From Psilocybe cubensis (taxonomy: Eukaryota), in the NCBI GenBank assembly GCA_017499595.2, contig CM039006.1, positions 558,001 through 622,000 of the forward strand: a stretch of DNA of 64,000 bases, read 5' to 3'. The notes below the pieces were generated by a model, which did no database searches, was not told the origin of the DNA, and saw only the letters and a program-made list of their open reading frames with translations. Numbering within the stretch: position 1 is the first letter of the stretch; every line of letters starts with the position of its first letter. Below, in pieces: positions 9,235 to 45,439 of the stretch. The translations under genes and the position numbers were made by a program.

Positions 9235-10902
9235 TTAAATCGCAATTTTTGAGGAGAAAACAGAACTGTAAACTGTTTTAAACACAGATGACAGACACGA
9301 GAGGTAGAACCGGGTCTTAGGGAGGATATAGGGGTTCAATCTTGACAAGTGTCGGTCCAAGAAGCGGAATGTTCGTAGATGCCAAGGGATGGGTGGTGTC
9401 CTGTATGATTTCCATTCCTCTGCAAATTCTGCAGGAACATCTTCCCATATGTCCCATTCTAAATAGGCCTTATGGGGGCTAATGGCTCCGCTGTAATCAC
9501 AGAGTTCCTCTTCTGGAACTTCCGCTAGACGTTCTTCAAAAAATATGAGAGCCTCCGATGCCGTGAATCGTTGACTGATATCCCATGTTGTCATCTTATC
9601 GATCAATGGTGCCAGAAAGTGAATCTTGGCTGCTAAAAGCTAGAGATCAAATTATTGGTCAACAATCTCATTTAATAATACGCGAAATGAAACAAAACCT
9701 ACGCCAAATCTCTGAGCAAATTGTACACCAAGCCCACCCACATCCAAGGCAAACGGATCATAGTCGTACTCCCCACCTGCTGTATCGTAGCTTAGATTGA
9801 ACGTGCCCCAGGACTCGTAATGGGGGAGTCGGCATTCCTTTTTATTCGCTGTAGGCGGAAACATAATCGAGATATCGTAGTCGCAGAGGGCGTATCGGAT
9901 TAGCCTATCCTCTCGACGCTCTTTACACCATACATTTATAACTTTGAAATCTTCATTTGACATGTTGGAAAAATGGCTTAACAACACGTTCTCAAACCTG
10001 ATGTCCTGGTGTTAGTGTTAGTACATGGTTCATCCGGATTATCAGAATTGAACAAAACGTACCCCGTGAACGATATTATGTTCGTGAAGATAGCTTAATC
10101 CCTATGTTGTATATTAGAAAAATGAATAAAATGAGGTGGCGGGAATTTAACGCACCTTCAAGCATGAATGCATGATATCAATGATTTCGAACCTATAGGT
10201 AAAGGAAGGACGAAAAAGATTCGACCCCCATCTCAAAGTCAAAACCATTCATCAGGTGGGAGTGAGGTACAGGTCAACGAACGGCCTACCTCGGCATAAC
10301 AGCAAACCAGAATCCATCATTGGGTAGCAAATCCAGGACAGGAAGGATGCAGTTCTCCTTCAACACCTCGAGGTTCTGTTGGCTCAAAAATCGTAGCACA
10401 CGATACTCGTCCGTGTCAGCATGTACAATTTTAATCGCAACATGTCGCTTATGCGTGTCTTGTGCAAACACAACTTTTCCCTATTTGTTTGGTTTTCGTT
10501 AATTGAAAGGCAGCAACTCTAGTTGTACTCACAGTCATCTCACGGGCGCCAAGGGGAGGTTGAGGTGGGCAACCCTTCCTGACATTGAACGTAATGTCGT
10601 ACGATGAATATGGATACTCGACATCAACAAATTCGCTGTCGGACTCCGGGGGGAAGACAGGATACGACGAGTCCGTTGGCAATGTTGCCCCCGTCGAATA
10701 GGTAGCGTATCCACGCCGGTACAGAGTGTATCCTCGGAGCTTAAACCATTCGATAGTATGAGGGGAGTCCCAGAACTCCTGACGCTCTGGATCGTCAGAA
10801 CCTCCTTGTCCTGCCTTGAAAGAAAATGTGACTTTGAGGGGAGGTGACTACCAGAATTTAGCAGCTTTGATAGAATACACATGAAGTAAGTCTCACCTCC
10901 AT
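9235..10902 (-). CDS. Protein kinase-like paralogue K1 (7 exons, apparently intact)
   Basis: ATG GAG micro-exon; exons give FWDSPHTIEWFK.GYTLY, GKVVFAQD..HVAIK, NCILPVLDL..MPRWG, YLHEHNIVHG|DIRFEN, YALCDYDIS, YDPFALDVGGLG, RFTASEAL. Confidence 0.85.
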
Positions 10903-11162
10903 AATAAAATAGGGCTTTTTCAAGGTATTGTCTTATAACTACAAGAAGTCTGCTAGGAGTTGAGCTTGCGTTGAACTTTGGTTGGACTTCGTATTTGTGA
11001 AATTGTTGATGTTGATGAGCAAGTTGATGCCGATGGATTGGCGAAGTTTGCCGAACCTTGCCTGATTAAAAGTCAGACAGTATGAGCCAATCGTGGCCTT
11101 GCGCCTACCCATCGAACAACGAAGAGTAAAATTAACAAGATTGGCTACAGGTTGTTTTTGGC

Positions 11163-12846
11163 ATGGAGGTATGCTTTTTTGATTTTGCAGTCACCGGTAG
11201 CGTATAAAACATCATGACACCATTGCCCATGTAGCTCCCTACCCTCAAAATCACATTCCCATTTGAACCTGGTGAGCCGTACGACAATGAGGAGAGATTC
11301 GCCTTCTGGGACTCCCCCGATACCATCCAGTGGTTCAAGCTTAAAGGATACCATCTATATCGACGGATATATCTTGGTTGGGATCCGGAAGGATTGGAAC
11401 TAGAACCAACCGAAACTATGGGGCCCACCTTGCCTCCGGACTCAAATGAAGAATTTATAGAGGCTGAGTATCCCTATGCATACCACGATATGACTACTAC
11501 AGATGCTCCAGATGAAAAGTACAACGTTCCCTTGCGTGTGATAGAATCAACTGTTAGTTGGCCCGCTTTCTTTGCCTTGACGAGTCAAATTTCTCACTTT
11601 TGCTTTACGGTCACACAGGGTAAAGTCGTGTTCGCTCAGGATTCCTGTAAAAGACACGTTGCAATCAAACTTGTACGCGACGACACGGACGAATACCGTA
11701 TTCTACGGTTTTTGAGTCAGCAAGACCAGAAAGCACTGAGGGACAACTGCATCCTGCCTGTTTTGGACCTTCTACCTATCGAAGGATTTTGGTTTGCAAT
11801 CATGCCGAGGTACTTTCCTAAAAAAAACTCAGTTTTCTAACCACATTTTTATTGTCAAAGATGGGGAACAGATATCTACGAACCTGCGCCCGGAGTTTTA
11901 AGAGAGGTTGTTGATATCATGCATTCATGGTTAAAGGTTCGTTATTTGGAAACTACAGGGCCTTGTGAAATCAATGAACACATTTATTATAGGGATTGAA
12001 GTACCTTCATGAAAATAATATTGCACATGGAGTCAGCACTTCCTGCTACATGACACGATTAATCGCGTGCTTACGTTTCTATCTTCATGCTGGCAGGACA
12101 TTAATAGGAGTAATATTCTTTTAAATCATTTTTCGGACGCCTACCTTTCATGCAAGCGGCGTGAAGGTCTTCGCCACGGCGGAAAAATTCTGTACGGCCT
12201 CTATGACTACGACTTCTCCGTTATGCTACCAGCTGGAGTCGACCGACGGGATTTCCGACTTCCCTATGATAGATCTTGGGGAACGTTCAATATTGTCTAC
12301 GACACCGCCGGGGGAGAATGTGATTATGACCCATTCGCGTTTGATGTTGGGATCCTAGGCGCAACCCTTTGCAAATATCATCAGGTATTTAATGAGTCAT
12401 TATTGGTTTTCATCTTGCGATCTTGAATAACATTTTCCCAGCATCTGGCACCTGTACTTCCGCTTTTGGCCCCGTTACTTGATAAAATGACAACTTGGGA
12501 CATCATCAATCGTTTCACAGCATCCGAAGCCCTGCAATTTTTTGAAGAGAGACTGGCAGAGTTCCCAGAACAACTTCTTGAAGTCGGCATACCCGAAGAA
12601 ATGATTACTGGAAAATATACGACATGCAATAGATGGGAGAACATTCCCTGCAAGGTGGTGGAAAAATGGAAATGTTACAAGACTCCGCCTGTTTCCTGGA
12701 GGCTAAGGATACTCCGTGCTTTATACCGTCTCACAGCTAGTAGGTTTCCCCACCTCATGCCCAAAACATGCTTGTTCTTTATCCGTACCAAATCGTTGAT
12801 CTCCCATGCTTACCGGTCAATATTCCCTTCCAAGATTGCAATCTGA
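11163..12846 (+). CDS. Protein kinase-like paralogue K2 (7 exons, apparently intact), divergent from K1
   Basis: ATG GAG|gtatgc micro-exon; HVAIK, YLHENNIAHG|DINRSN, LYDYDFS, YDPFAFDVG, RFTASEAL; same intron positions as K1; ends SKIAI*. Confidence 0.85.
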
Positions 12847-37707: not shown

Positions 37708-37888
37708 CAGCCAACAAGGTGGTCTTCAAATCACACCGGTGGAGAGACACCTCCCCGACGACACGTCTGTACGGACATCAGGCAAGCAAAAAATCGCCGA
37801 ACCTGGAAAATCTTTGATGAAATGTACAAATGACGGACACAGTTGTAGCAATGTAGTAGATACACCCAGAGAAATTTTAGATATGATT

Positions 37889-39737
37889 TTACGACCGAAA
37901 TAGGAGCTTGCAGCGAAGTTTGAATACCATGGACATAACGCCCGAAAAAAATCTCCGGATCCGAGGTATAATGTGGGGATTATATCGTGCTGAGCGTCGG
38001 TATATGGCACGAAGGGTTTTCAGATGCCAGGGAATGGGCGGCGTCCTATACACCTTCCACTTTTCCATCAAGGCCGGAGGCATCTGCCGCCACCTATTAT
38101 AAGTCGAGTAATCTTCGTACTTATAACGACCTTGGCAAATTGCGACTTCTAGCTCCTTCTGCGTTAACTCTGAAAGGTTTTGCTCGAAAAATTTCAAAGC
38201 TTCAGCCGCAGTAAACCGTCGTTTAAGATCCCAGGTTGTCATCATATCTAGCAGAGGTGCTAAGACAGGAAGATACTCTGTGTGGTACTATAATTATACT
38301 CTTTAGCGCCAGCACAATATAGAAGTAAACACAGAAGTGTACCTGATATTCTAAACACAATGAAACACCCAAAGCCCCCACATCACCAACAAATGGGCTA
38401 TAATCGTGTTCCCCAGCAGCCGTGTCATTACTTACGTTGTATGTTCCCCAAAATCGCTGGTAAGGCAATCGAAATTTAGTCCTATCAGCGTCTGGTGCCA
38501 GCATGACTGAAAAGTCAAAGTCAATGAGGGCGTACAACAGGCGCCTTTCGGTGCGCAGTGTACCACGCTGATGGTACCCATCCGGTGAAAATCGTGAATC
38601 TGCAAAATGGTTCACTACAACGTTTGCATCCCTAATGTCCTGTCAAAAGTATGTCAAAAATCTAGAAATTGAGCTTGAATTGCTTTAAAGCTAACCCCAT
38701 GCGAGATGTTATTATCATGGAGATAGGCTAGACTCTGTCATATAGCTAGGTTACACTGCTGGCGCTGATACATATTTGATAGAAAAATATGTATCGGTAA
38801 TTATGTTTCCTGTTGGTTTTTGACGTATTTTTCTCGTATATAGAGTTCGGGGTTACCCAATTAGGGAAGCCCGAAGTCTATATTCCAATAAAATACGTCA
38901 AAAAAATGTAGGAAACATAATTATTGGGTCTTATTTTCTTTGAAAATATGTATGAGCGCCAGCGGTGTTAGCAAGGTCGCCACCAGTTTATCATTCAAAT
39001 ATACCTTGAGTCTCGAATAAATAATATCGGCAATCTCATACACATACCGTGGTAGAGGCTGATAAATACCAGTGCCCCATCTGCAAGCCACTTTGAGAAC
39101 ATACCAAAGTTGTTAAAGCAAACCAAGCTTACCTTGGCATCACCGCGAGCCAGAACCCCTCTATTGGTAGGAGATCCAGTACAGGAATAACACAGTTCTC
39201 CTTCAACGTATCCATACTTTGCTCGCTCAAAAACCGCAGTACTCGATACTCGTCTGTGTTGTCTGGCACAAGCTTGATTACAACATGTCGTTTCAGGGAG
39301 TCCTGAGCATATAGAATTTTTCCCTAGAGATGTAATATTAGAAGATTATAATGATAGTTCACAACATCCACCTACAGATGTATCAACACCAGATAGAGGT
39401 GGGTCTGTTTGGTATTCCTCAGGAATCTCCATGGTATCCATATCATGGTGAGCATATGGGAAATCGGCTTCAACAGGTCCACTTTGAGGGTCTGGTGGGA
39501 ATATGGGAAACGTGGCCAATTCTTCGCCTCTGTAAACGCTGCGCTTGTACAGGGTATAACCGTGATCCTTGAACCATTTGACCACGTCGGGAGAGTCCCA
39601 GAAAGCAAATCGCTCCAATTCATCGACTTCAACGCCTTGTTCAAATGAAAAGGGAATCGTGAGCCCCGAAGACTGTTATCCATTGTTTCATGAAACTGTT
39701 CCATGTACCAATTATCATAAGGGAAACTTACCACCAT
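37889..39737 (-). CDS. Protein kinase-like paralogue K3 (7 exons; MITE in intron 4)
   Basis: ATG GTG|gtaagt micro-exon; FWDSPDVVKWFK, HVVIK, YLHDNNISHG|DIRDAN, YALIDFDFS, YSPFVGDVG, RFTAAEAL; exons open. Confidence 0.8.
38754..38967. mobile_element. 214-bp MITE, PIF/Harbinger(Tourist)-like, TTA target-site duplication
   Basis: Absent from the duplicate copy at ~44670; flanked by TTA (38751-38753, 38968-38970); TIRs CACTGCTGGCGCTGATACATATTT / CACCGCTGGCGCTCATACATATTT; further internal inverted similarity. Confidence 0.9.
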
Positions 39738-40412
39738 GGCGAATTAGTTTACAGCACAGCGTATCTGATTAATTAATGGTAATTAGAGTTTCGGTTCGAA
39801 TTGTTGTGCGACGTGGAATGACGCGTCAAGCTATGTGGAAGGTATCCCGAGGTGAAAACTGAAATAGTAACCAAACGGTAACAGACGGGAACACAGCAAG
39901 GTAATCTGTCACATCATATGCCGGGTCAGCCAAAAATGTCACGGGTAGCACTTTACAAGTGCCCTGCACCAAAATTAAAATATAAGATTGATTTCCAGCT
40001 AAATCAGATAGGTATTTACGCTACATGATCTGACTAATTGAGTTGCAGCATGTCTTTTAGTTTAACTAGAAGAACTTCAACTATTTTGTTTTCCAGTTAA
40101 TATATGACAATTTCCTACAATTAATTTGAGTATCAACAGATTCAGAGATACGCTACCGGTGACTGCAAAATCAAGAAAGCATACCTCCATGCCAACAACA
40201 ACCTGCAGCCAATCATGTTAATTTTACTCTTCGTTGTTCGATGGGTAGGCGCAAGGCCACGATTGGCTCATGCTGTCTGACTTTTAATCAGGCAAGGTTC
40301 GGCAAACTTCGCCAATGCCTCCGCAAAGTCCAACCAAAGTTCGACGCAAGCTCAACTCCTAGCAGACTTCTTGTAGTTATAAGACATTACCTTGAAAAAG
40401 CCCTATTTTATT

Positions 40413-43184
40413 ATGGAGGTGAGACTTACTTCATGTGTATGCTATTGAAGCTGCTAAATTATGTTAGTCACCTCCCCTCAAAGTCACATTTTCTTTCAAG
40501 GCAGGACAAGGTGGTTCTGGCGATCCAGAGCGTCGGGAGTTCTGGGACTCCCCTGATACCATCGAATGGTTTAAGATCCGAGGATACACTCTGTACCAGC
40601 GTGGATACGCTACCTATTCGACGGGGGCAACATTGCCAACGGACTCGTCGTATCCTGTCTCCCCGCCGGAGTCCGACAGCGAATTTGTTGATGTCGAGTA
40701 TCCATATTCATCGTACGACATTACGTTCAATGTCAGGAAGGGTTGCCCACCTCTATGGCTGTCCATTTGCACATTTAATACCAATCATTAAACTTTTTGT
40801 CCCATACATATAGAGAACAGTTTTATACGATCCCCACTATATATATTAATGTCTCACTCATAGAGAGCTAGTTTCCGAGCATAGAGGAAATCATCCCGAT
40901 AATTGTATTTACAGAATCTTCAACTTTAATGAATGGTACATACATATATACATCTCACCCCTATATATGACATCCCGTACCATACTTTGTAATCCCCTCC
41001 CCATATATCTAACATTTTTTCCAAAGACATAGAGTTGTCGAGATGACTACCCTGCGTGCCGGCACTGCCGAATCCGTGTGGGAATTATATTTGTACCCCG
41101 CTTTGGGGTGGATAGCTACTCCTGAAGCAGCTAGGGGAATACTTTAAGTTCAGATATGCATTAAAAATTTCGAGTTTGATGATGAAACACAAAATTTGTG
41201 CGTATAGCTGACCCTGAGTAGATTGACCACCTATAACCTCAACTTCAGGTGTATTTAACCTTAACCAAACTTAACATATCTGCTACTGGCTGTTATCACA
41301 GCGCTTGGCTCAGAAAAAACACTCAATAATGCTGTATTTAGCTTACATTATAGCATTCACAATCGGTTAGTATTTGAAACTGTGTCAGTGCTTACTCTGC
41401 CTGTGTCAAGGTGAAAAAACAGCAATGTGCTGTGATTCGTCTGGCTGATTGCCGAGATATGCCGAATTCGCACGAAGGCAAGCTTGCCACGGCAGGAACG
41501 AATGCCGAAAATCACCTGTATTTCTTCGGGACGACGACAGGTAAAATCTAAGATTGCCGGAACCAGTAGATATATGTGGGGGAGCAAAAAATGTATGAAA
41601 CGGCATGGGTTTCCTATGTAAGGGATTCTAATATATATATATGTGGGCTCCAAAACTATATGTATGGTACTCAAAGTTGTACCTAAGGTTGCAATATACA
41701 AATGTGTGGATATGAGATCTTTATGATTGGAAGCCTTTTCTCTATCTTCGGACACCATAAGATATAGTTATTGGAAGACTTAGTCCAAGACTTCTAAATA
41801 TGGGACAAAAAGTTTAATGATTGGTATTAAATGTGCAAACGGACAGCCATACACCTCAACCTCCCCTTGGCGCCCGTGAGATGACTGTGAGTACAACTAG
41901 AGTTGCTGCCTCTCAATTAACGAAACCAATTCAAATAGGGAAAAATTGTGTTTGCACAAGACACGCATAAGCGACATGTTGCGATTAAAATTGTGCATGC
42001 TGACACGGACGAGTATCGTGTGCTACGATTTTTGAGCCAACAGAACCTCGAGGTGTTGAAGGAGAACTGCATCCTTCCTGTCCTGGAATTGCTACCCAAT
42101 GATGGATTCTGGTTTGCTGTTATGCCGAGGTAGGCCGTTCCTTGACCTATACCCCACTCCCACCTGATGAATGGTTTTGACTTTGAGATGGGGGCCGGAT
42201 CTTTTTCGTCCTTCCTTTACCTATAGGTTCGAAATCATTGATATCATGCATTCATGCTTGAAGGTGCGTTAAATTCCCGCCACCTCATTTTATTCATTTT
42301 TCTAATATACAACATAGGGATTAAGCTATCTTCACGAACATAATATCGTTCATGGGGTACGTTTTGTTCAATTCTGATAATCCGGATGAACCATGTACTA
42401 ACACCAACACCAGGACATCAGGTTTGAGAACGTGTTGTTAAGCCATTTTTCTAACATGTCAAATGAAGATTTCAAAGTTATAAATGTATGGTGTAAAGAG
42501 CGTCGAGAGGATAGGCTAATCCGATACGCCCTCTGCGACTACGATATCTCGATTATGTTTCCGCCTACAGCGAATAAAAAGGAATGCCGACTCCCCCATT
42601 ACGAGTCCTGGGGCACGTTCAATCTAAGCTACGATACAGCAGGTGGGGAGTACGACTATGATCCGTTTGCCTTGGATGTGGGTGGGCTTGGTGTACAATT
42701 TGCTCAGAGATTTGGCGTAGGTTTTGTTTCATTTCGCGTATTATTAAATGAGATTGTTGAACAATAATTTGATCTCTAGCTTTTAGCAGCCAAGATTCAC
42801 TTTCTGGCACCATTGATCGATAAGATGACAACATGGGATATCAGTCAACGATTCACGGCATCGGAGGCTCTCATATTTTTTGAAGAACGTCTAGCGGAAG
42901 TTCCAGAAGAGGAACTCCGTGATTACATCGGAGCTATTAGCCCCCGTAAGGCCTATTTAGAATGGGACATATGGGCTCGTGTTCCTGCAGAAGTTGCAGA
43001 AGAATGGAAATCATACAGGACCCCACCCATCCCTTGGCATCTACAAACATTCCGCTTCTTGGACCGACACTTGTCAAGATTGAACCCCTATATCCTCCCT
43101 AAGACCCGGTTCTACCTCTCGTGTCTGTCATCTGTTTTTAAAACAGTTTACAGTTTTGTTTTCTCCTCGAAAATTGCCATTTAA
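40413..43184 (+). pseudogene. Protein kinase-like paralogue K4 (recent inverted copy of K1) interrupted in exon 2 by a TIR element
   Basis: Near-identical to the reverse complement of 9235-10902; the codons for RKGCPP|QPPLG are split by a 1098-bp insertion that stops the frame. Confidence 0.85.
40754..41851. mobile_element. 1098-bp non-autonomous DNA transposon, 53-bp TIRs, 6-bp TSD CACCTC
   Basis: TIR TATGGCTGTCC(A/G)TTTGCACATTTAATACCAATCATTAAACTTTTTGTCCCATA at both ends (1 mismatch); CACCTC at 40748-40753 and 41852-41857; empty site visible in K1; no transposase recognised. Confidence 0.92.
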
Positions 43185-43808
43185 TACAGATAATCATCAC
43201 CTAATGTTTTAAAAGCCTCGTTCAATTTCTTCATGTCCATATTATATTCCTAATTTGCATTGGCAATCCATTGGGCTGGGATACGTTTGGTTTCCTCTGC
43301 CATCTCCAGATTTAACTCAGATAATTATGTCAAACATTCATTATGTTGATAGAAATCATTGGCTGTTCTGGTGGGTCGAAAAGAAAGGTGTAAAAGGTGT
43401 CCCGAAACAGTATGCACAGAGCGTTATAAGTCGATATGCCGCAGGTGGGCTGGCTATGCAGACCATGCCAGTGTGCGCACGGAAGACTCTCATATTATTC
43501 TTTTTTCAATTTCTTTGGCCCAATCACCAATTGGAAAATTTGACATTAACAGCACCATTCATTACTCCGACTCATCTCCGAGACTCTGCGAGCAGGAGCA
43601 GCCTCTGGTACTACGAAGACAAATATATTCATTTATAGAATCCCACCAGCCAAGCGGATACCTTTGACCGGAATACGAAGGACATCAGACAAGCGAAAAA
43701 TCGCCGAACCAGCGAAATCTTTGATGAAACGTAAAAATGACGGAACAAAAGTAAACTACAGTTTTAGCGATGAAGTAGACACATCCAGATGAATAATTAG
43801 ATATGATG

Positions 43809-45439
43809 TTACGACCGAAATTGAAGCTTGCAGTAAAGTTTGAACACCATGGACATAACGCCCGCAACAAATCGCCGGGTCTGAGGTATGATGTGGAGAT
43901 TATATTGTGCTGAGTGTCCGTATATGGCACGAAGGGTTTTCAGATGCCAGGGAATGGGCGGCGTCCTATACACCTTCCACTTTTCCATCAAGGCCGGAGG
44001 CATCTGTCGCCACCTGTTATAAGTCGAGTAATTTTCGTAATGGATGCTTCCGGAAATTTCAACTTCTAGCTCCTTCTGCGTCATCTCGGAAAGGCTTTGC
44101 TCAAAGAATTTCAAAGCTTCAGCCGCAGTAAACCGTCGTTTAAGATCCCAGGTTGTCATCATATCTAGCAGAGGTGCTAAGACAGGAAGATACTTTGTGC
44201 GACACTATAATCATACTCTTTAGCGCCAGCACTATATAGAAGTAAACACAGAATAGTGTACCTGATATTCAAAACACAATGAAACACCCAAAGCCCCCAC
44301 ATCACCAACGAATGGGCTATAATCGTGTTCCCCAGCAGCCGTGTCATTACTTACGTTGTTTGTACCCAAAAATCGTTGGTAAGGCAATCGAAATTTAGTC
44401 CTATCAGCGTCTGGTGCCAGCATGACTGAAAAGTCAAAGTCAATGAGGGCGTACAACAGGCGCCTTTCGGTGCGCAGTTTACTACGCCGATGGTACCCTC
44501 TCGGTGGTAATCGTGAATCTGCAAAATGGTTCACTACAACGTTCGCATCCCTAATGTCCTGTTAAAAGTATGTCAAAAATCTAGAAATTGAGCTTGAATT
44601 GCTTTAAAGCTAACCCCATGCGAGATGTTATTATCATGGAGATAGGCTAGACTCTGTCATATAGCTAGGTTAGCAAGGTCGCCACCAGTATATCATTCAA
44701 ATATACCTTGAGTCTCGAATAAATGATATCGACAATCTCATACACATACCGTGGATTTGGCTGATAAATACCAATGCCCCATCTGCAAGCCACTTTGAGA
44801 ACATACCAAAGTTGTTAAAGCAAACCAAGCTTACCTTGGCATCACCGCGAGCCAGAACCCCTCTATTGGTAGGAGATCCAGTACAGGAATAACACAGTTC
44901 TCCTTCAACGTATCCATACTTTGCTCGCTCAAAAACCGCAGTACTCGATACTCGTCTGTGTTGTCTGGCACAAGCTTGATTACAACATGTCGTTTCAGGG
45001 AGTCCTGAGCATATAGAATTTTTCCCTAGAGATGTAATATTAGAAGATTATAATGATAGTTTACAACATCCACCTACAGATGTATCAACACCAGATAGAG
45101 GTGGGTCTGTTTGGTATACCTCTGGAAGATCCGTCGTATCCATATCATGGTGAGCATATGGGAAATCGGCTTCAACAGGTCCACTTTGAGGGTCTGGTGG
45201 GAAGATGGGAAACGTGGCTAATTCTTCGCCGCTGTAAACGCTGCGCTTGTATAGGGTATAACCGTGATCCTTGAACCATTTGACCACGTCGGGAGAGTCC
45301 CAGAAAGCAAATCGCTCCAATTCATCGACTTCAACGCCTTGTTCAAATGAAAAGGGAATCGTGAGCCCCGAAGACTGTTATCCATTGTTTCATGAAACTG
45401 TTCCATGTACCAATTATCATAAGGGAAACTTACCACCAT
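43809..45439 (-). CDS. Protein kinase-like paralogue K5 (direct duplicate of K3, apparently intact)
   Basis: Same exon structure and motifs as K3 (HVVIK, HG|DIRDAN, DFDFS); lacks the MITE. Confidence 0.85.

Follow-up and report, generated by a model that had tools for sequence, protein, structure and literature searches.

Divergence peaks that persist under gene conversion, as treated in the Teshima-Innan model and exemplified by the primate red/green opsins, have been read as the outcome of selection restricting conversion, as far as the accessible part of that source goes (PMC3924837). The present analysis concerns two kinase genes, K3 and K5, located in a 64,000-nucleotide stretch of the Psilocybe cubensis genome (GenBank assembly GCA_017499595.2, contig CM039006.1, positions 558,001 to 622,000), which is called the window throughout. 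Judged by their sequences, both genes are kinases of AgaK1, a mushroom-specific family that is already known. In the accessible parts of two sources, one Coprinopsis cinerea AgaK1 gene appears in a table as induced by both Escherichia coli and Bacillus subtilis (PMC4704728), and the family is merely named in a figure legend (bioRxiv 10.1101/349894); our search, beyond whose reach most subscription journals lay, found no literature on AgaK1 function, sequence evolution, selection or conversion.

K3 and K5 resemble the opsins, as the latter are described in the available part of PMC3924837, in that they are tandem neighbours with homogenised introns and with exon divergence peaks around amino-acid differences. 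We are highly confident that the K3/K5 pattern is a gene-conversion mosaic, and we give an even chance to the more specific reading that selection has kept the divergent patches apart while conversion proceeded. Coordinates preceded by C and a number refer to contigs of the genome (46.6 Mb, 21 contigs), all others to the window.

Divergence of K3 and K5

K3 (37889..39737; 434 aa) and K5 (43809..45439; 433 aa) are intact genes on the reverse strand, with open frames and GT-AG introns separating seven exons, namely 39737-39732, 39672-39376, 39323-39133, 39080-39005, 38734-38696, 38639-38343 and 38287-37889 for K3 and 45439-45434, 45374-45078, 45025-44835, 44782-44707, 44653-44615, 44558-44262 and 44204-43809 for K5. 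Their proteins are 91% identical. Amino-acid changes affect 38 of the 433 aligned codons, with one additional gap codon, and come in bursts, as a preliminary description of the locus had stated; every patch quoted there is present in the sequence, and about seven can be delimited. Another 22 codons differ purely synonymously.

The patches, all on the reverse strand, were placed by homology mapping, i.e., by predicted secondary structure and a profile alignment to p38delta. Patch 1 (39415..39435, K5 45137-45117; codons 82-88) would lie in the loop preceding the first N-lobe strands and comprises six changes including four replacements, with the third copy of this type, K8, identical to K5. Patch 2 (39023..39073, K5 44775-44725; codons 168-184) maps to the post-hinge region with the alphaD equivalent and the start of alphaE, and patch 3 (38559..38591, K5 44510-44478; codons 220-230) to the beta7-beta8 insert, with six replaced codons and not a single purely synonymous one. 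In patch 4 (38439..38459, K5 44378-44358; codons 264-270), assigned to the activation segment, K5 and K8 have lost a family-consensus Trp. Patch 5 (38276..38354, K5 44273-44193; codons 299-306) spans intron 6 at the predicted end of alphaF; the portion of it that opens exon 7 (YHTE in K3 versus CRTK in K5) was missing from the earlier list. Patch 6 (38087..38191, K5 44108-44007; codons 335-369) covers the end of alphaI and the post-kinase linker and includes a 3-nt indel, and patch 7 (37901..37999, K5 43919-43821; codons 399-431) falls in the putative C-terminal helices. The latter, at residues of about 388-434, are two long helices rich in basic and aromatic residues that extend beyond the range of most structural matches, and they possibly bind membrane.

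The divergence outside the patches is uneven. In the introns, 5 of approximately 327 aligned bases differ (1.5%), in addition to a 2-nt indel, whereas synonymous sites show 26.7 differences per 313-365 sites (7-8.5%), and by-eye counts gave about 1% for the 5' flank and about 15% for the 3' flank. The latter figure stems from the homology at 37773..37888 (reverse strand; about 17 substitutions in 112 aligned bases) and probably represents the unconverted level of divergence. Since synonymous and 3' flank divergence exceed intron divergence, which selection on the protein cannot produce, the introns have been homogenised. That introns are neither constrained nor slow by nature follows from two further kinase genes of the window, K1 and K4, whose introns differ at 15 of 333 bases (4.5%), matching the synonymous-site rate.

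These rates bear on the view that the 1.5% intron divergence reflects the true age of a very recent duplicate and that the patches are rapid adaptive substitutions under classical diversifying selection. The low divergence of the introns and the 5' flank, the composition of patch 3 and the significance of plain site tests (see below) would fit, but the synonymous and 3' flank values are far too high for such an age, and protein selection cannot have raised them. Moreover, synonymous changes adjoin the patches, and the patches themselves recur in other copies, those of K5 almost completely in K8 and those of K4 in a copy named K1c. Recent duplication with fast adaptive patches was therefore rejected on the basis of the synonymous and 3' flank divergence, and we hold it to be very improbable.

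Evidence for gene conversion

Exon 3 and intron 3 are identical in K3 and K5, as previously noted, and belong to the longest identical run of the pair, 287 bp from the end of intron 2 through exon 3 with the VxIK motif and intron 3 (39072..39359, reverse strand), a length reached in 0 of 5000 uniform shuffles (P<0.0002). A further tract of about 287 bp, delimited from the alignment, covers the 5' flank, exon 1, intron 1 and the start of exon 2 (39551..39837, reverse strand). Identical runs also exceed the uniform expectation between K5 and K8 (276 bp, P=0.001) and between K1 and K4 (308 bp, P=0.002), the latter extending over most of exon 6 into intron 6 on the forward strand (42453..42760).

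The remaining differences are distributed as a mosaic. At 63 exon and 3 intron positions K8 agrees with K5, and its agreement with K3 is limited to 8 exon positions, every one of them in exon 7, and 2 intron positions; K8 carries almost all of the K5 patches. Between K3 and K5, 13 of the 22 purely synonymous codons lie within three codons of a replacement (5.9 expected, P=0.001), and in exon 7 two identical stretches of approximately 87 nt each, located over conserved helices, alternate with segments containing seven and four purely synonymous codons. When pooled, synonymous rates are uniform from region to region (0.22-0.33).

In the K1 subfamily, the previously reported differences between K1 and K4 occur at the places stated, and their exon 6 proteins are identical (one synonymous change, then the 308-bp run). 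The assumption that K1 and K4 form an independent pair did not hold, however, and they were discarded as a replicate, because their differences are blocks shared with K1b and K1c, two copies outside the window. The 35 informative sites among K1, K4, K1b and K1c are arranged in runs (17 K1+K4, 15 K4+K1c, 3 K4+K1b); a four-base change with linked neighbours unites K4 with K1c and K1 with K1b, and the quoted exon 7 patch of K4 is common to K4 and K1c as a block that includes a linked synonymous change. As the K4 patches are common to K1c, this pair is an example of exchange and not of parallel mutation. Patchy gene conversion, formerly mentioned as an alternative, is thus demonstrated by significant tracts and mosaic site sharing.

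Alternatively, short conversion tracts from a more distant paralog or allele, or complex multi-base mutations, might have brought the patches into an otherwise young duplicate. Nine K3/K5 codons hold two or three differences, 9-11 of the 15 bases compared in codons 353-358, next to the indel, are changed, and the K1 subfamily provides an example of transfer in blocks. However, a DNA search with K3 exons 6-7 found no donor paralog for the K3 patches in this genome, its four candidates being K3, K5, K8 and a 70% match, and a by-eye comparison with K2, K6 and K6b indicated derived states on both lineages, so that an import of the patches seems hardly probable to us.

The preliminary description had also considered that a dikaryon assembly might have wrongly joined two alleles of a single locus, which would then appear as K3 and K5. 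Their high identity and common orientation would be compatible with alleles, but the homology is confined to about 2.2 kb and the outer flanks are unrelated. In the raw reads of run X14, for which a mean depth of about 35x is expected (1632 Mb / 46.6 Mb), the K3 exons were covered 29-34x and the unique flanks 27-39x, i.e., as a single copy, and K5 reached about twice that depth (52-71x, K5 plus K8); the K4 exons had 119-144x, corresponding to four copies. In the contigs of runs X1 and X7, which come from two other studies, though X1 may be the assembly's own sample, K3 and K5 are each joined to their own different 3' flank with zero mismatch. Read depth and flanks thus identify separate loci, and an allelic mis-join is virtually excluded. 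The K3, K4 and K5 types were near-identical where shown in four runs, which had been chosen for containing this sequence; the variants considered are 40 of 451, and contigs can document presence but not absence. Two observations on the same runs stand apart. In X7, a contig of about three-copy depth crosses patch 1 in its K5 form and the corresponding K3 bin is empty, reflecting either a converted allele or a collapsed bubble and unusable for either. In X14, 56 of the 65 reads placed at 39240 show the K8 letter, a figure that the placement of reads among the copies makes uninterpretable.

Selection on the divergent patches

The preliminary description had attributed the patches to diversifying selection. 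As a claim about fresh point mutations replicated in K1 and K4 this was not supported, since the ratio of nonsynonymous to synonymous rates (dN/dS, omega) is below one, synonymous changes are clustered and conversion has occurred; selection is nevertheless plausible alongside conversion. At the whole-gene level, dN/dS is 0.54-0.67 for K3/K5, with synonymous changes clustered near replacements as described above, and 0.47-0.59 for K1/K4. The demonstration of conversion does not exclude selection, because it is the variable loops of the exons that have kept their divergence, and the introns have kept very little: K3-specific changes occupy 63 of 1296 exon bases and 3 of about 327 intron bases (hand-calculated Poisson p of about 0.001, rising to about 0.02 when exon 7 is left out).

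The surviving divergence also falls at positions that vary in other subfamilies. At alignment columns that are variable in five other subfamilies, here termed hot columns, the proportion of nonsynonymous differences (pN) among K3, K5 and K8 is 0.155, compared with 0.025 elsewhere, i.e., about six-fold higher. Site models run in our own implementation, with a single rate along the gene and no multi-nucleotide correction, were significant for K3/K5/K8 (M1a/M2a p=0.004, M7/M8 p=0.004, M8a/M8 p=0.001), with M2a placing 7% of sites at omega 6.8. The comparison of M7 with M8 that had been proposed as a check would favour positive selection under these settings, although the pairwise dN/dS stays below one. 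M1a/M2a was likewise significant for the K1 subfamily (p=0.004, on a tree held fixed despite the mosaic) and for four subfamilies jointly (p=0.0004). The rate tests were run without K7 and Y1, two copies lacking a close sibling, and the pooled and held-out counts without three broken copies of the X type. The pairwise dN/dS of K5 and K8 is 0.33 and a K8-type copy is spliced in run X10, which is probably RNA; that type is therefore not simply decaying.

The main rival holds that no selection is involved: conversion would be patchy by chance or blocked by mismatches, and tolerant loops with an omega near one would accumulate more mismatches and thereby escape it. Several results speak for this neutral mosaic and against a role of selection. 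Whole-gene dN/dS is below one in all 23 pairs (0.23-0.81), and M1a alone already assigns 42% of sites to its neutral class. Variable loops are the rule in most protein families, conservation among 58 homologs and among all subfamilies is lowest in the patch regions, and recurrence in the same columns is also expected from relaxed loops. The held-out hot-column pN/pS (pS, the synonymous proportion) of K3/K5/K8 is 1.24, falling to 0.70 when smoothed over five codons, and it is 1.01 in the K1 subfamily, 0.69 in K2 and about 0.6 (uncorrected) in the two older subfamilies, so that the two best-sampled young subfamilies give values of about 1-1.2; the 3.55 obtained for K6/K6b comes from a pair with one broken copy and two synonymous changes. 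By a hand estimate, the pN of the insert patch, about 0.15, equals the 15% unconverted baseline and again yields an omega near one. The synonymous enrichment of hot windows in K3/K5/K8 (0.171 versus 0.075) is slight in K2 and absent from the other four subfamilies.

The statistical tests themselves also have weaknesses. Six of the eight sites flagged by M2a are codons with two or three differences, three of the eight lie beside the indel, and M2a and M8 are very sensitive to multi-nucleotide changes, which inflate false positives, according to the accessible part of PMC6332903. The changes are clustered and non-independent, the hand-calculated p-values are accordingly optimistic, and only six short introns were available for the contrast. 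Furthermore, K3/K5 divergence climbs from 5' to 3', and decay is frequent in the cluster, where 5 of 15 copies (K4, K6 and three of the X type) are broken, although some single-base frameshifts may be assembly errors. On the other hand, a mismatch block should spare introns at least equally, but homogenisation has gone furthest precisely there; the region that holds the activation-segment changes shows conservation elsewhere (pooled pN/pS 0.23); and the site tests were significant in two subfamilies separately. A neutral mosaic with relaxed loops is thus a possibility to be taken seriously, though short of likely.

Under conversion combined with selection, the history of the locus would be as follows. 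K3 and the K5/K8 lineage would have duplicated long ago, and neutral divergence may have reached the approximately 15% still present in the 3' flank and exon 7. Interlocus conversion between nearby copies has since overwritten introns, 5' flank and the exon segments of the conserved core, as the tracts and the mosaic sharing show, and about seven short exon segments have remained without fixed conversion, with synonymous changes trapped beside the replacements. There, selection may remove converted alleles, presumably because a K3-type protein can no longer stand in for one of the K5/K8 type or the reverse. This process also moves patches among the four copies of the K1 subfamily.

Position of the patches in the kinase

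The patches may meet on one face of the C-lobe formed by alphaD, the end of alphaF, the activation segment and the post-kinase linker. Differences on such a face could conceivably alter substrate choice or autoinhibition, and one might speculate that partial chimeras misfit. Among 50 structural alignments, 33 reach model residue 354 or beyond, of which 29 are to CASK, CaMKII, DAPK or DCLK1, and the other 17 stop at 339-346; the CaMKII, CASK and DAPK alignments end near chain residues 293-299. In CaMKII, the inhibitory helix blocks the substrate site in an alphaD-controlled groove (available part of PMC2910593). Judged by the alignment end-points alone, this suggests that the linker patch adjoins patches 2 and 5. 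Alternatively, the p38delta profile alignment puts patches 2, 3 and 6 on elements of the mitogen-activated protein kinase (MAPK) docking site named in the accessible part of PMC4370755. No MAPK was found among the 50 structural alignments, which favour the CaMK-like linker path, and a docking groove is considered an alternative only. By analogy, the patch sites would correspond to regulatory surfaces in other kinases; the term specificity surfaces, introduced in the preliminary description, is an interpretation drawn from homology mapping.

If selection guards the patches, the comparison of two proteins of 91% identity narrows the residues that determine specificity or regulation down to a small set, and the patches may be what gives each AgaK1 copy its own job. 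If the neutral explanation holds, the locus illustrates neatly how a tandem cluster can take on the appearance of positive selection through the mosaics left by conversion and through codons changed at several bases.

The AgaK1 kinase cluster

A self-comparison of the window revealed repeated kinase-like genes. The 192 kb around it contain 15 kinase copies and one fragment, and eight further copies were modelled elsewhere on C9, C6 and C11. K5 matches a Coprinopsis cinerea protein named other/AgaK1 with 38% identity over 400 aa (E 4e-80), and identities to other/AgaK1-named proteins of Gymnopilus, Pholiota and Lyophyllum are 41-44%. All 66 matches of the homolog search, five of which carry the other/AgaK1 name, are named from genera that we take to be Agaricomycetes, and the nearest homolog from another species is 52% identical. 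The catalytic residues K117, D203, N208 and D242 (K8 numbering), i.e., the beta3 Lys, the catalytic Asp and Asn and the metal-binding Asp, are at least 90% conserved in 58 homologs and are kept in K3 and K5. The structure model of K8 has a kinase fold with a mean predicted local distance difference test (pLDDT) score of 92.7; its Foldseek matches include CHK2, PASK and CaMKII (E of about 1e-9), and its comparison with CASK gave a Z of 17.7 and a root-mean-square deviation of 3.2 over 240 aligned residues. The Pfam Pkinase score remained under the cut-off (23.4 versus 31.7 bits), and no kinase was recognised when five exons were scanned singly against Pfam.

On models with seven exons and GT-AG introns, K1, K2, K3, K5 and K7 are intact. 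Compared by eye, the K5 model equals the database protein P0069, and K8 (C9:639-641 kb) matches P0002, both named as Psilocybe cubensis. A spliced contig of K5/K8 type in run X10 supports the exon 7 acceptor of K5 (joint 44204/44262); that this run is RNA is a guess, since no run is recorded as such, although the contig is spliced. At the 5' end of K8 (C9:639322-639382), exon 1 and intron 1 are unrelated to those of K5, and exons 2-6 are near-identical.

K1 (9235..10902, reverse strand, 444 aa) and K2 (11163..12846, forward strand, 440 aa) are arranged head to head with a common upstream region of 260 bp (10902-11163). The pair K1b/K2b is likewise 260 bp apart (C9:554319-554580) and forms with K1 and K2 an inverted 4-kb duplication of 94% identity. 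K3 is head to head with K4 (40413..43184, forward strand), a K1-type kinase with a mosaic of K1- and K1c-type sequence, across 675 bp (39737-40413), and the duplicate that gave K4 brought along the first exon of K2. The intron 3 acceptor of K1-type genes is an unusual GAG in all four copies (10232-10234 and 42185-42187 in the window).

In K6 (59462-61085), the catalytic Asp is replaced by Asn, two residues ahead of the DFD motif are deleted and the frame is shifted by +1 within a G run; K6b (C9:550.7-552.3 kb), the sibling of K6, is intact. The eighth copy in the window (57538-59095), called X1 like one of the sequencing runs, is frameshifted, and all three copies of its type (with C9:678.8-680.4 kb and C9:707.6-709.2 kb) are broken by two frameshifts and one stop in total. 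Their pairwise dN/dS is nevertheless 0.27-0.29, which indicates that the breaks are recent or assembly errors. A 310-bp direct repeat of 91% identity lies on either side of the block of X1, K6 and K7 (56599-56907 and 63253-63562). A search with an AgaK1 query also gave a cluster of about ten weak matches at C3:951-1016 kb (27-34% identity), which probably represent another tandem kinase family; together with two C8 matches, they were kept out of all counts.

Mobile elements at K3 and K4

Intron 4 of K3 contains a miniature inverted-repeat transposable element (MITE) that was missing from the preliminary description (38754..38967; 214 bp, CAC...GTG ends, 3-bp target duplication) and is absent from K5 and K8. 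It is EnSpm-like by its ends and duplication and occurs in at least 40 distinct places of the genome with 88-100% identity, many of them at 95-99% (40 of 58 candidates scored). In X14, 33 reads link a MITE end to a MITE start, which suggests head-to-tail copies or circles.

Exon 2 of K4 is interrupted by a transposon of 1098 bp (40754..41851), the terminal inverted repeats of which measure 53 nt. Its ends read TAYGG...CCRTA and it has duplicated 6 bp of its target; such ends and duplication are the signature of IS3EU (PMC12730594). It contains no open reading frame (ORF) of at least 170 aa, and the high read depth over it implies more genomic copies. The empty site is also present in reads, from other K1-type copies or from K4 without the element.

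Comparison with known systems

A fungal parallel is somA, the somatic incompatibility locus of Coprinopsis cinerea, which, according to the accessible part of the source, also contains repeated, variable mushroom kinase genes (bioRxiv 10.64898/2026.06.24.733965). By this analogy, it is a lead for a role of the AgaK1 cluster in non-self recognition. In somA, however, each kinase is paired with a NACHT gene beside a leucine-rich repeat (LRR) gene, and alleles have less than 50% similarity (same part of that source), whereas K3 recurs nearly unchanged in other samples, picked because they contain this sequence. None of 59 NPHP3_N matches fell within C9:530-722 kb, a lower bound as divergent NACHTs may be missed, and no NACHT-type Pfam match was found in the 21 of 29 long window ORFs scanned, so that a somA-like pairing of kinase and NACHT was rejected for this cluster. 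Its neighbours are housekeeping genes, among them a G-alpha-like fragment, an ABC transporter and a mitochondrial carrier.

One might envisage the AgaK1 cluster as a birth-and-death recognition locus in which conversion keeps the core uniform and shuffles specificity patches and selection guards co-adapted sets, but we consider this unlikely. The same low confidence applies to the extension of this idea, according to which the patches would form one regulatory face including a CaMK-like autoregulatory linker, as the kinase counterpart of plant nucleotide-binding leucine-rich repeat (NLR) clusters in defence or non-self signalling.

The HMA4 genes of Arabidopsis halleri, tandem paralogs in which interlocus conversion has produced mosaic divergence, are similar to K3, K5 and K8 in comprising three near-identical copies with a conversion rate that varies within the gene; unlike AgaK1, HMA4 encodes a plant metal pump under known dosage selection, and protected protein patches are not described in the available part of the report (bioRxiv 10.1101/2025.10.29.685298). 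The opsins show a single divergence peak, and K3 and K5 about seven small ones, known here from the sequences of one genome (opsins as in the accessible part of PMC3924837). The AgaK1 cluster adds a new example of a process that is already established, in a family so far unstudied, and if selection has indeed acted on the patches, a fungal kinase joins the small number of systems for which divergence has been documented to persist in spite of gene conversion.

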